From Amoebophrya sp. A120 (taxonomy: Eukaryota; Protista; Dinoflagellata), in the NCBI GenBank assembly GCA_905178155.1, contig CAJINV010000001.1:605643-669642 (forward strand): a stretch of 64,000 nt of DNA, given 5' to 3'. The position numbers and the translations under genes were made by a program. The notes under the pieces are model-generated. The model was not told where the DNA came from. It made no database searches and was given only the letters and a program-made list of their open reading frames with translations. Shown piece by piece: positions 36,601 to 48,900 of this stretch (positions within the stretch are counted from its first letter, which is position 1; each line of letters starts with the position of its first letter).

Positions 36601-37960
36601 CATGCATCACAGATGCTCGAGTCATGTCAGACATGCATGACAAATGTAAGAATCTTCCAGACCCAGACATATTTGCAATGCATATCACCAGCAAGAGGTC
36701 TGCAGTTTGGAGTGGTCGCACGACGGGACGTGTTTAGCGTCGGGCGGAAACGACAACGTGATCTGCCTCATATCCACTGCAAATATGTCTGGGTCTGGAA
36801 AAGTGGAACTTGTAATGCTAGCTCTACATTCCTGGGAAATCTGTGTTGCATAACCAACAAAAGTCGCAGCCTCTTTTGTCATGCAAAAACGCAGTTTTTC
36901 ATGCGGATTGCCTATGAGAAAGCGTTTTGGGAAGTTGTCATGCTGGGCCGCATTCGGAAGTGTTTTCATCATGCACATTTTAGCGTCACCGCCCAGACAT
37001 ATTTGCATTTGAGAGCTCACGGACGAAAACAATCTTTCCGTGCCGCGTTTCCTGCTGTCCGAGCACCGCGCGGCGGTCAAGGCCCTGGCCTGGTGCCCCT
37101 GGCAGCGGAACCTGCTGGCCAGCGGGGCGGGCAGCAACGACATGCGGATCCGGTTCTGGCACGCGAACACCGGCATATCAAATGGAAAAGTGTCTGGGTC
37201 TGGAAGAGTGTAAACTTGTCATGCAGGTTTTTCATGACCCATGAGGTTTGGAATGCGGGACCCAGCATGACAGAGTCTGTGAGGTCTCTGCCATGCCTAT
37301 CCTGCATGAGAAACTCCCTCCAAACTTGGTCGAAAGTGGACAGCTTTTGGCACTCGTGCAGCACAGATTTCTCGATGATTCGGATCTAGCATGACAACTT
37401 TCAATCTTCCAGACCCGCCAGACATTTTTGCAATCCATACGGCACGTGCGTAAACGAAATTCTCACAGACAGCCAGGTCACGCAGCTGCGGTGGAGCACG
37501 GCGGACCGCGAGATCGCCTCCTCGCTATGCAAGGCAGGAGTATCGTATTAGTACGAATTATTGCATTACAAATTTATCCAGAAGAAAAAGTCGAATTTGT
37601 GATGCTGTTGTAGCTAAAAGGCGAGATCTGTCATGCAATCTTGCGATTTGCAGCGAGTTGCACGAGTATCTACGATACTGTTGCAATGCATACTCGCACG
37701 GCTACAGCAAGAACCAAATTTGCGTGTGGCAGTACCCCAGCTGCGGGAAGCTGGCGGAGCTCGCCGGGCACACGAGCCGCATTCTGTGCATGGCGCAGTC
37801 GCCGGACGGGAGCACGCTGCTCACCGCGGGCGGGGACGAAACCCTGCGGTTTTGGAAGGTTTTCGCGCCGGAACGGAGCAACGTGCCGGTGAAGCCAAAG
37901 GCTACTACGCTGGACAACTTTTCGGGCACAAAGATGTCGTCTTTGAAGGGGATCAGATGA
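33660..37960 (+). CDS. CDC20: CDC20/Cdh1 (fizzy-family) WD40 APC/C activator; 9 introners plus conventional introns (e.g. 34711-34862)
   Basis: C-box [73 protein letters not shown]-terminal IR tail. Confidence 0.92.
33841..34099. mobile_element. Introner, family A
   Basis: TIRs; TSD CTTGA/CTTGA. Confidence 0.9.
34140..34399. mobile_element. Introner, family A
   Basis: TIRs; TSD ACTAC/ACTAC. Confidence 0.9.
34915..35235. mobile_element. Introner, family C (GAAAAATCCCCCTCCCCATATC TIR)
   Basis: TIRs; TSD TTTAC/TTTAC. Confidence 0.9.
35283..35603. mobile_element. Introner, family C
   Basis: TIRs; TSD CACCA/CACCA. Confidence 0.88.
36042..36368. mobile_element. Introner, family C
   Basis: TIRs; TSD CACAG/CACAA; removal restores IHNHDVR. 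Confidence 0.9.
36430..36684. mobile_element. Introner, family A
   Basis: TIRs; TSD TCACC/TCACC. Confidence 0.9.
36771..37014. mobile_element. Introner, family A
   Basis: TIRs; TSD CCTCA/GCTCA. Confidence 0.88.
37176..37439. mobile_element. Introner, family A (reverse-complement sister of 45963-46223)
   Basis: TIRs; TSD CGGCA/CGGCA. Confidence 0.9.
37526..37692. mobile_element. Introner, family F (GCA..AGTATCGTA TIR)
   Basis: TIRs; TSD CTCGC/CTCGC; removal restores SSHGYSKNQ. Confidence 0.9.
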
Positions 37961-38696
37961 CATTTTTCTCACGGGTTTACAATTTCCAAAAACATCAGCA
38001 GTACTACTCAGGTCGTTTGATCCTGTTGGTACTGCTGAAGAATCTTCGAAGTTTATTTACAATAGACTCTACAAATGCAACTTATTTGTAAGAAAGTTGG
38101 GACCACCAGCAGCAGCTTTTGGAGCGGCTCATGGTCGTGTGCTGCGGTCATGAGCAGGAACGATCCGGCCGCGTTGATATTTGTTGGGAATACAATTTGA
38201 TGAACCAACCTTGCGCAAAATGTACATCGCTTGATCCAGCCCTTGCACGACATCAGAACAGAGACAGATTCTGAAAGTAGAGCATCGCGACCTGCTCTCT
38301 ACTCTTTGCACCTGGGCTGTTCCAGATTGATGCTGAGAGTATGTTGGCTCAATTATGAGTAGGTGAAGTATTAAAAACCTCCTCGTTTGAAGACATCTAA
38401 GAAGAAGTCTGTCTGCTCGGTAACTGGTTTGCGTTTGCCTTCTTTTCAAAACACAGTTTTCGCTCGAGTAGAAGGTTACATTTCCAAGAACGACTGAGCT
38501 CCTATCCAGTACAACTTCTTCCTCACTTTTGCTTTTTCTACTCTTGTTCAAAGATGTAGCTGGGAACGGGGACAGTTCGTGCCTTTTCTCGCTGCGCGCC
38601 GCGCACGCTTCTGGTGCCGCCGGACGCCGGCCGATACTGCCGCCAGTGGTGCGGGGAATACAACAAAAGAACTGCATAGTACGCGACAAGAACGAG

Positions 38697-45900: not shown

Positions 45901-48900
45901 CCCCACTCCAAGGGCTTGCATTTCGCCCTCTGCAACGACAAGAACACGTTTAATGCGAGCTTTATGGATTGCAAAAATGTCTGGGTCTGGAAGATTGCGA
46001 CTTGTCATGCTAAATCCGAATCATGCAGAAATCTGTGTTGCATGAGTGCCAAAACCTGTCCGCTTTCGACCAAGTTTGGAGGGAGTTTCTCATGCAGGAT
46101 AGGCATGGCAGAGACCTCACAGACACTGTCATGCTAGGTCCCGCATTCCAGACCTGATGGGTCATGGAAAACCTGCATGACAAGCTTACACTCTTCCAGA
46201 CCCAGACATTTTTGCATTTGATAAGCTTCTCCATGAACGGACAGCTGCTGCTGGCCGCCGGGATCCGACTCCTGCAGACCGTGATCACGTTCGGCGCCAT
46301 GCTCCCCTCCGGGCTGTTCATCCCCTCACTGTTCATCGGCGCGACCGTGGGGCGGTTGGTGGGCAACATCAGCTACTTGGTGGTGCTGGAGCAGCACATC
46401 GAGCCGGGCGTGTTCGCGATGATCGGGGCCGCCGCGATGTATCGTATGTAAAAACGTCCCCACCCCATAGTTGTAGTTGACATGCAAATCTGCATGCTCA
46501 AAATGTTTCTCATGCGGAGCCCCATGAGAACCATTCTCTACTCGTGTTTTGGAATTTGTGATGCTAGAATCAGGATGGCATGCTAGATCTGCGATGCTTC
46601 GGAACTAGCTAAGTAACCAGGATCACACTGTGAGGACAAACTTGTCATGCGAAGTTACCAAAGCTGGTGGATTTGTCTAGCAGATTTCCCAGGTTGACTC
46701 TGGTGTGGGGACGTTTTTACTCAGGATACGATGCTGGCGGGGTTCACGCGGATGACCGTTTCGCTGGTGGTGATCATGTATCCTGTGCAGAAGTATCGTA
46801 CTCGTATAAATGCAAGTCTTGCATTACAAATCTTTTACTTAAGGTAAATGCGCATTACAAATTTCATCTCTCATGCTGAGGAAATTTGTAATGCATTTAT
46901 ACGAGTACGATACTTTTGCAGTTCATACCATGTTCGAGCTCACCGGCGAGCTCACCTACGTGATTCCCTTTATGTGCGCGGTGATCACCGCCAAGGTGGT
47001 GGGCGACCTGTTCACCGGCAGCATCTACGAGGAGCACGCCACTTTGAACGGCTTCGCCAACATTGAGGACACGCCCACCAGCATCCGGCTGGAGGTGCTG
47101 GTGGCGGACCTGGCGAGCGAGTACCCCTGGACCAAGGTGCTGGACGTGGACCAGTATTTTCGGTTCGCGGCGTATGCAAAGAAAAAAGTGTTACAGTTAC
47201 ACATTGTGTTGCAGACCAAGCAAGAGAGACAAGCTCTGTGATGCCGGATATGCATAGGAGCCTCGTTCCATAGGTGTTTTCCCGTAGGATTTCTGCATTA
47301 CAAGTTTTCTCTCTCATGCAGAGAAATTTGTGTTGCTGAATTCACTACACATGTGTAACTGTAACACTTTTTTCGTGGGATACGGCGCTGCGCGACATGG
47401 TGGGGCTGGAACCCGCGACCCTCTGCGCGGACGCGGATCAGCACGACGAGGACCCCACGCACGTGATCGAGTTGGACGAGGGGGAAGATGAAATTGGCAA
47501 TAACAGTGCCGGGGGCGCAGAAATAAAGCCGACACCCACAAGTTCTTCGCAGCTCACCGTGTTCGAGCCGGACTATGTGGGGCCAAATGTGGTCCTGGAG
47601 GACGGCACGACGACGAAAGGGCATTCCAGTTCTGGTTCGCCGCAGGCTGTGCTAAACATAAACAACTCTTCGGCGCGGAAGACGAAAAAGAAGAAGCGCC
47701 GCAAACTGCTTGCGGAGAACCCATTCCGTTCCTCCGACGACGAGGACGATATATGCACTAAAAATGTGTGCGGGTCTGGAATGTTCGAACTAGTAATGCT
47801 GGTCTTACATGACTGTAAAATCTGTGTTGCATAACCAACAAAAGTGGTAGCCTCTCATGTCATACAAAAACGCAGTTTGTCATGCGGAGTTCGTATGAGA
47901 AAGCGTTCTGCAAGCTTGTCATGCTTTCCTGCATAAGGAAGTGTTTTCCTCTTGCACATTTTAGCATCACAAGTTTATTCGAGACCCAGACATACTTATT
48001 TGCATTTGATACGAAAGCGGGGGCGACGATTTGAAGCGGGACCGCGACCGGCTGCTTCGCCGGTCAAAGGAGGGCGCGCCGGAGATGAAGTTGCACTACG
48101 CGGCGAGAAGTCGAACGACTGCGGGTGGAGGTGGTGGTCCCCGGGGAAGCAATCTCCACACCACGACCGAGAGAAACCATCGGAAGTCGGAGCAGGACTC
48201 AGTCATTCTCGTGCGGCGTGGCGTCGGCCCGATCTTCGGGTACATCCGGAAGCGCCGGCTGCGCCAGTGGTTGATCGAAATGATGTATGCATTGCAAAAG
48301 CATCGTACTAGTACGAATAGCATGGCAAATTTGAATTTCTTCAAGAACAAAAATGCAATTTCCATTATGCTGATTTGGCTATAGATAGAAACAAGCATTT
48401 GTCACGAATGGTTACAAATAGTACAACGAGGGCGATATCACTTTTGCAATGCATATGATGCGCGTGGAGGACAACAAGCTGCTCGAAGAGCGGTATTGCT
48501 GCTTCGCGCTGTTCGGCGGCGACGGCCTATCAAAATGAAAAATCCCCCCTCCCCACATCAAAACGAAGACTTGTGTAGCATGATTCTTTGTGATCACAAG
48601 TGAGTCGCGTTGTCATGCTAGAAGGGAACAAGAGATGCGGACTGTAGTGCTGGCTGGAGCGGGAAAGCTTTGCGTCGTCAGCATGACAGGAAGCAACTGG
48701 AAGCGGGATGAAACAGCATGACGCATTGCCTACACATAACGAGGCCACAACTGTGTCCCTTGGTCTTCTAGCAATGCAAGTCGATTTGTGTACTCAAATG
48801 CCGCATCTCAAATTTCGTCTTCGATATGGGGAGGGGGGGACTTTTCCTCACAATACGGCCTGTGGGCGGAGAACATGGACGTGCGGGCGCAAACCTTCCA

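Follow-up and report, generated by a model that had tools for sequence, protein, structure and literature searches.

Short repeated elements of the dinoflagellate Amoebophrya sp. A120 serve as introns in either orientation. This is seen in a window of 64,000 nucleotides (nt) from contig CAJINV010000001.1 (positions 605,643 to 669,642 of the forward strand; coordinates below are those of the window), where an element at 37176-37439 recurs as its reverse complement at 45963-46223, both inside genes on the + strand. Removal of an element together with one copy of its flanking duplication restores the ancestral reading frame in both orientations, and the elements insert both ways at about 1:1. Their ends are symmetric and are read in a polar manner, probably by a relaxed U2-type spliceosome.

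Inverted copies of a MITE-like element

The elements are non-coding DNA-transposon copies resembling MITEs (miniature inverted-repeat transposable elements), bounded by TAT...ATA inverted repeats and flanked by a 5-bp target duplication. They are the published A120 introners, which they match on every feature tested, so the system itself is already known. The window carries 53 of them, with a mean length of 259 nt counting one duplication, and the catalogue was curated by hand (61 candidates, 11 weak ones dropped, 3 added from BLAST, RNA or an exact-repeat scan). Further copies came from a pattern scan of 167 loci of one other assembly, which gave 255 unique elements; 8 with short flanks were dropped, leaving 247. 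In both sets the inverted repeat reads TAT, about 7 variable nt, then at least 3 A. The flanking duplication is perfect in 30 of the 53 window elements, where its length was left free in one search, and in 216 of the 255 extra-locus elements, where a 5-nt offset was built into the search. TAT..ATA segments with an exact 5-nt flanking repeat and a terminal inverted repeat (TIR) match of at least 14/25 numbered 26, against 0-1 in 5 block shuffles. All MITE features are thus present: TIRs, a target-site duplication (TSD), short length, lack of coding capacity, many copies and both orientations. Longer TIR-bounded copies in the extra loci hold open reading frames (ORFs) of at most 137 amino acids (aa), the DNA examined (window and loci) yielded no transposase, and a scan of viral contigs gave no match.

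Aligned to the reverse complement of 45963-46223, the element at 37176-37439 is identical in 243 of 264 columns (18 mismatches, 3 gaps), whereas forward alignment gives 176 of 292; BLAST reports 91.8% (E 5e-106). The pair had been described as near-identical from the sequence alone, which here means 92%. Inversions had also been proposed in families A, B and E, and these are borne out by interiors compared with the inverted repeats trimmed off. In family A, identity of 1419 is 0.78 reverse versus 0.55 forward with 24373, and 0.77 versus 0.53 with 34140. Likewise, 8011 and 6257 of family B, both inside the Sec7 gene, give 0.64 versus 0.52, and 44774 of family E gives 0.65 versus 0.51 with 62134 and 0.64 versus 0.52 with 50988. 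Orientation labels are consistent in all 7 window families (0 inconsistent edges). The copies concerned are:

37176..37439, + strand: introner, family A, orientation 1; duplication 37171-37175 / 37440-37444; predicted intron 37175-37443 (AT..GC)
45963..46223, - strand: introner, family A, orientation 2; duplication 45958-45962 / 46224-46228; predicted intron 45962-46227 on + (TT..CT)
1419..1680, + strand: family A, orientation 1, in a 2OG-oxygenase-like gene; predicted removal opens a 505-aa frame
34140..34399, - strand: family A, orientation 2; RNA joint 34134>34400
24373..24633, - strand: putative family A, orientation 2, from interior identity and orientation labels
6257..6535, + strand: family B; interior identity; absent from the annotated protein
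8011..8299, - strand: family B, opposite orientation; imperfect duplication, cut at most 4; annotated protein and A25 orthologue both VIDRII
44774..45001, + strand: family E; imperfect duplication, cut at least 4; RNA piece ends 44772; 227-nt arithmetic
50988..51232, - strand: family E, opposite orientation; exact 249-nt remainder in runs X2 and X3
62134..62389, - strand: putative family E, opposite to 44774, from interior identity and orientation labels

Elements of both orientations are absent from RNA contigs

RNA evidence comes from contigs of runs X1-X3, one sample of one study whose RNA label is a guess; contigs give no splicing efficiency. The joints cited are among those listed, crowded regions were read from contig pieces, and repeat artefacts of the DNA-like run X5 were set aside. 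The X1-X3 contigs also skip GT-AG introns.

At the 37176 element, RNA joint 37170>37440 drops 269 nt, which is 264+5. A single 1835-nt contig carries the Cdc20 joints, with this element and eight others gone, each with 5 nt. At the 45963 element, a piece of X1 covering 45528-45957 (record 361-790) adjoins 46224-46434 (record 150-360). The contigs show splicing both ways in family A (37176 and 51475 versus 34140, 45963, 49658 and 50194), in family D (36430 versus 33841 and 36771) and, within one contig, in family C (34915 versus 35283 and 36042). Likewise, family E was spliced at 44774 and at 50988, the latter by remainder length: between 50191 and 51753 in X2 and X3, 249 nt are left, with exactly six elements and 5 nt each gone. 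Removal of 8011 and 6257 in family B is taken from the annotated protein, and for 8011 also from the A25 orthologue. The sequence-only reading had proposed that the same element is an intron in either orientation, a view that retention of one orientation in mRNA would contradict; in the contigs, families A, C, D and E all lose elements of both orientations. Run X5 yields continuous pieces containing elements (48826-50890, 51148-51973), and raw-read runs X8 and X9 place just 4 and 2 reads on the window.

The GC content agrees with that of A120 (51.3% versus 51.2%), and three host proteins of the window are 100% identical to annotated Amoebophrya sp. A120 proteins:

33660..37962, + strand: Cdc20/Fizzy gene, 473 aa (P0054; Pfam WD40_CDC20-Fz); 9 elements of families A, C and D, each family in both orientations, and 2 GT-AG introns
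42951..52281, + strand: CLC chloride channel gene, 1373 aa (P0001); 17 elements and 2 other introns
5270..9925, + strand: Sec7-domain gene, 858 aa (P0049; Pfam Sec7); 6 elements

Excision of each element with one duplication gives + strand ORFs equal, letter for letter, to the annotated 1373-, 473- and 858-aa proteins. The assignment of all host genes to the + strand also stands: with elements removed, ORFs are 1373, 472 and 505 aa on + versus 289, 178 and 207 aa on -, and a codon model applied to flanks only scored + above - for 52 of the 53 window elements. The A25 orthologues are gapless and colinear across 45963, 37176 and 8011, indicating that these elements were inserted into ancestral exons.

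Imperfect duplications point to a single cut register

The position of the cut was expressed as k, the number of bases of the left duplication copy that are kept. Only imperfect duplications reveal the junction; perfect ones hide it. RNA contigs give k of at least 4 at 44774, 47752 and 49377, at least 3 at 50194, 3-4 at 51475, and at most 4 at 36042 and 51893. Annotated proteins give at least 4 at 51275 and at most 4 at 50529 and 8011. A k of 4 alone yields all three annotated proteins, and the CLC reconstruction has to keep 4 nt of the left duplication to equal P0001 with no difference. From these pooled constraints we infer one intron form, N|TAT...ATA NNNN|, with the 5' cut 1 base before TAT and the 3' cut 4 bases past ATA. 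In line with this register, the nine predominant non-canonical junctions given for A120 in Table S4 of PMC7789003 all start N-T, and the nine A25 junctions there are all TT. The further elements that constrain k are:

36042..36368, + strand: family C; cut at most 4; joint 36032>36365, both=8
47752..48011, + strand: family D; cut at least 4; joint 47750>48016 in X1, X2 and X3
49377..49556, + strand: short family; cut at least 4; RNA pieces end 49375
51475..51749, + strand: family A, orientation 1; cut 3-4; RNA piece starts 51753; predicted end pairing near 0
51893..52161, + strand: family D; cut at most 4; joint 51886>52161 in X2 and X3

The element at 50794-50937, whose duplication has decayed and whose ends are not predicted to pair, would read GT..AG under this register as if turned canonical, and is covered by one unspliced RNA contig piece.

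Copies in further loci show no orientation bias

The extra loci carry the same families as the window (best copy 97.3% to 45963). The last 3 nt were left unused in locating the ends of these copies, and the codon model, right in 52 of 53 window cases, assigned the host strand from the flanks alone. A family could be assigned to 224 of the 247. Counted per family, as the sequence-only reading had suggested, the orientations show no detectable bias: 50:61 in family A (p=0.34), 19:29 in D, 12:13 in H, 7:5 in B, 6:6 in C, 4:5 in F, 3:3 in E and 0:1 in G. The window count for family A is 4:11. RNA reverse splicing would insert in one direction only. In contrast, insertion both ways fits DNA transposition.

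The constraint on the terminal bases is polar

In the 247 extra copies, the two terminal bases at the 5' end are T in 247 and A in 246, whereas the corresponding bases at the 3' end are kept in 240 and 240. The terminal TA is therefore broken once at the 5' end and 13 times at the 3' end (p=0.0018). The third terminal base is not polar (4 versus 3). The window gave 0 versus 6, a count that serves as the discovery set only, because its catalogue was hand-curated; the extra loci are the test. Position +1 accepts any base (A69 C53 G86 T39) and the last dinucleotide looks unconstrained, with AG at the intron end in 20 of 247 copies. The rule of a GT/GC donor and an AG acceptor is thus not followed, and only T+2 and A+3 are kept. 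Some mismatches in the window suggested that +1 drifts towards G, a trend that the extra loci did not repeat.

Canonical introns start with GTA in 4 of 4 RNA-supported cases. They do so in 27 of 41 unweighted predictions, versus a background of 19%, a noisy comparison in that the gene finder bridges intergenic DNA and includes false introns. Given these GTA donors and the TA ends of the element, the repeat supplies donor positions +2 and +3 at either end.

No interior column was conserved in an orientation-dependent way; isolated p values of 0.01-0.03 among hundreds of columns were taken as chance. Transcripts of the 37176 and 45963 elements are predicted to form hairpins that join their two ends (z -6.8 and -9.9), mean minimum free energy (MFE) of the elements is -96.6 versus -69.1 for shuffled sequence, and predicted end pairing exceeds 0.8 in 34 of 52 elements. 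The sequence-only reading had placed the splicing signals in the symmetric termini or the hairpin. The location agrees with our data, since no interior column is kept by orientation and the transcripts fold into end-joining hairpins. In contrast, those ends are read asymmetrically, since selection acts on the 5' terminal TA and much less on the 3' TA.

Candidate splicing machinery

As regards the machinery and the 3' ruler, we infer that the elements are probably removed in either orientation by a relaxed U2-type spliceosome, which reads U+2/A+3 at the end that comes first. Both element ends begin with TA, so that either orientation would offer N|UA, matching +2/+3 of GUA canonical donors; G+1 and the final AG would be dispensable. 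The 3' cut may be set, more tentatively, by distance from the 3' repeat or by the base of the end-to-end hairpin, and the A-run of the repeat would appear as a U-run about 15-19 nt ahead of the 3' cut in both orientations. A120 is reported to have nearly the full set of spliceosomal proteins, as well as U2, U4, U5 and U6 (PMC7789003). Furthermore, one hybrid intron, possibly an old element, is spliced without the repeat, in support of the spliceosome:

45233..45527, + strand: spliced intron that starts TTA and ends CAG; inverted repeat nearly lacking (10/25); seen from loose ends and pieces of RNA contigs

Several observations weigh against a spliceosomal assignment or the data behind it. U1 was not found in A120 (PMC7789003), and a non-spliceosomal enzyme could equally read a polar UA. 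Of 300 elements, 0 contain TACTAAC and 11 have CTRAY within their final 60 nt. The sequence-only reading had asked whether both strands carry a conventional branch motif, and such strict motifs are indeed nearly absent; 221 of the 300 contain the loose YTNAY, which favours neither strand. An A at -7, considered as branch point, is present in 53 of 53 window elements but was rejected, as 3 of the 247 extra copies differ. No interior column is polar. The hairpin ruler is weakened by 51475, spliced with a predicted end pairing of 0.01, and by the 34/52 fraction above. In one copy alone (L046:3542-3786) the TA at the predicted 5' end is broken, reading TTT, which makes this copy a ready test case for the donor rule. 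No lone element fixes k=4, and the register assumes one cut for all. Finally, the contigs guessed to be RNA stem from a single sample, the annotated proteins may share those data, and the 247 extra copies have a predicted strand and no RNA behind them.

Cutting of the terminal hairpin by a dedicated non-spliceosomal machine (a structure-guided endonuclease with a ligase, or a new ribonucleoprotein, RNP) with a 1-nt 5' and a 4-nt 3' offset, as proposed for euglenids, is the main rival explanation and a less likely one. The strong end-joining hairpins, the elements lacking G+1, AG or branch motif, and the missing U1 (PMC7789003) are consistent with it, and fixed offsets from a stem resemble Euglena (PMC12501133). 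However, the constrained bases are exactly the canonical donor T+2 and A+3, and the terminal pairs are not required, given the freer mutation of their 3' partners. Likewise, the TTA..CAG hybrid is spliced without the repeat, and 51475 without predicted pairing. It is rather unlikely, though conceivable, that A120 has a second, U1-free splicing system, RNP or protein, needing only an N|UA start and a transposon end 4 nt from the finish, which would be an independent euglenid-like origin in alveolates. If true, such a system would make any TA-ended, 5-bp-duplicating insertion a perfect intron, whatever its sequence or direction.

That the skipped forms are empty DNA alleles or products of somatic excision is very improbable. 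X1-X3 are guessed to be RNA, which would leave room for it, but the same contigs skip GT-AG introns, and one contig lacks 9 elements together. Moreover, one duplication is removed with left and right copies mixed at a fixed point, and X5 retains the elements. Least credible of all are ordinary introns with hidden GT-AG/GC-AG sites in the flanks or duplications, or else an artefact of assembly or mapping: chance or drift has given a few elements a GT..AG reading (50794), but the idea is refuted by the junctions, since no sliding position at 37176 or 45963 yields GT/GC-AG (37176 joint ends CG..TA, both=5) and AG ends occur in just 20/247, by X5, in which DNA runs unbroken over elements that RNA contigs skip, and by A25 orthologues colinear over the sites.

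Relation to known introns

The text of PMC7789003 describes A120 introners with inverted repeats of TAT, about 7 variable bases and an A-run, direct repeats, non-canonical junctions and a mean length of about 260 nt. As published, they are repeated, RNA-supported non-canonical introns; the published direct repeat over the junctions is 3-5 nt, and here it is 5 nt. About two thirds of Amoebophrya introns are given there as non-canonical, with their removal an open question and their border 'unknown' or 'variable' relative to the hairpin (PMC7789003). That text uses 'orientation' for genes only, and splicing in both orientations, a single register and the 5' TA constraint were not found in it. 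The literature searches turned up neither the register nor the polar TA constraint, although the figures of PMC7789003 (Fig. 3, S19-S25) and bioRxiv supplements may show part of the register. The absence of orientation bias, the single cut register and the polar 5' TA are what this analysis adds. Integrase-like ORFs have been reported in TIR-flanked A120 introners (PMC12130899).

As here, introners of Polarella glacialis and Aureococcus are described as TIR/TSD transposons that act as introns both ways, with cuts at or within the duplication (10.1101/2020.10.14.339549; PMC10228655). Their splice sites are GT/GC/GA and AG, which the element either carries or recruits from a target under constraint, whereas the A120 target is nearly unconstrained, and G+1 and AG are unneeded. 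Polarella classes 6, 8 and 10 reportedly show a bias in orientation (10.1101/2020.10.14.339549), and none was detected here.

The sequence-only reading had likened the elements to euglenid non-conventional introns, a comparison that fails on sequence: the signature N3CDG...CH'GN5-6|R as given in PMC12501133 is absent, with T at +4 in 243 of 247 copies and N-TA...ATA-N4| in its place. Non-canonical ends, terminal pairing at a fixed cut offset, flanking repeats and a proposed MITE origin are shared as described (PMC12501133; PMC11282704), the pairing that joins the ends by prediction only (the 34 of 52 elements noted above). Full-length circles are reported in euglenids, and the lineages are unrelated. 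Fritillaria introns are likewise described as transposon-derived and non-GT/AG, removed by a modified U2 spliceosome (PMC11282704; PMC13326754); unlike A120, Fritillaria has an AG-AC/AG-AT junction bias and retains U1. IS3EU/GingerRoot elements share TA..TA termini, but their TSD is usually 6 bp (PMC10045372), in contrast to 5 bp here.

Further features of the window

All 53 elements lie inside roughly drawn gene spans and 0 in the approximately 17 kb outside (chance about 2e-10), a genic bias that is unexplained for a DNA transposon. They are clustered, with 17 in CLC, 9 in Cdc20 and none in 10.0-22.9 kb. The 8-nt motif TGT(A/C/G)ATGC, likely transposase sub-terminal sites, has 912 copies, on either strand, in 75 kb of element sequence versus 1 in 8.7 kb of intergenic DNA; two canonical introns (39511, 53670) also have it close to their 3' end.

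At 56345-56929, a short-family element has grown to 585 nt through a GC-rich insert at about 56415-56855, which carries long A-runs and may be a retroposed element nested inside; the host element keeps a perfect outer duplication. A segment at 25023-25268, within a gene, has TAT...ATA and a partial inverted repeat (14/25) and no 5-bp duplication, and was excluded from the counts. The 910-nt GT-AG intron at 43384-44293 contains a GC-rich insert studded with A/T-runs, probably another repeat family, whose ends are loose ends in RNA contigs. A GC-rich intergenic block at 28800-30600 has a tandem duplication of about 160 bp and short direct repeats. Two short interstitial runs of TTTAGGG, the telomere motif given for A120 (PMC7789003), flank one gene region at about 11185 and 13780.

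Implications

That one element can be an intron either way round, the surprise of the sequence-only reading, is mostly explained by its symmetric transposon end. A single register and a polar two-base need make the splicing question left open in PMC7789003 directly testable, and the register could guide a lariat search, base changes and re-annotation of junctions across the genome. The scale of the invasion would also be explained: if target sequence and orientation are irrelevant, nearly every insertion into coding sequence would be silent at the mRNA level.

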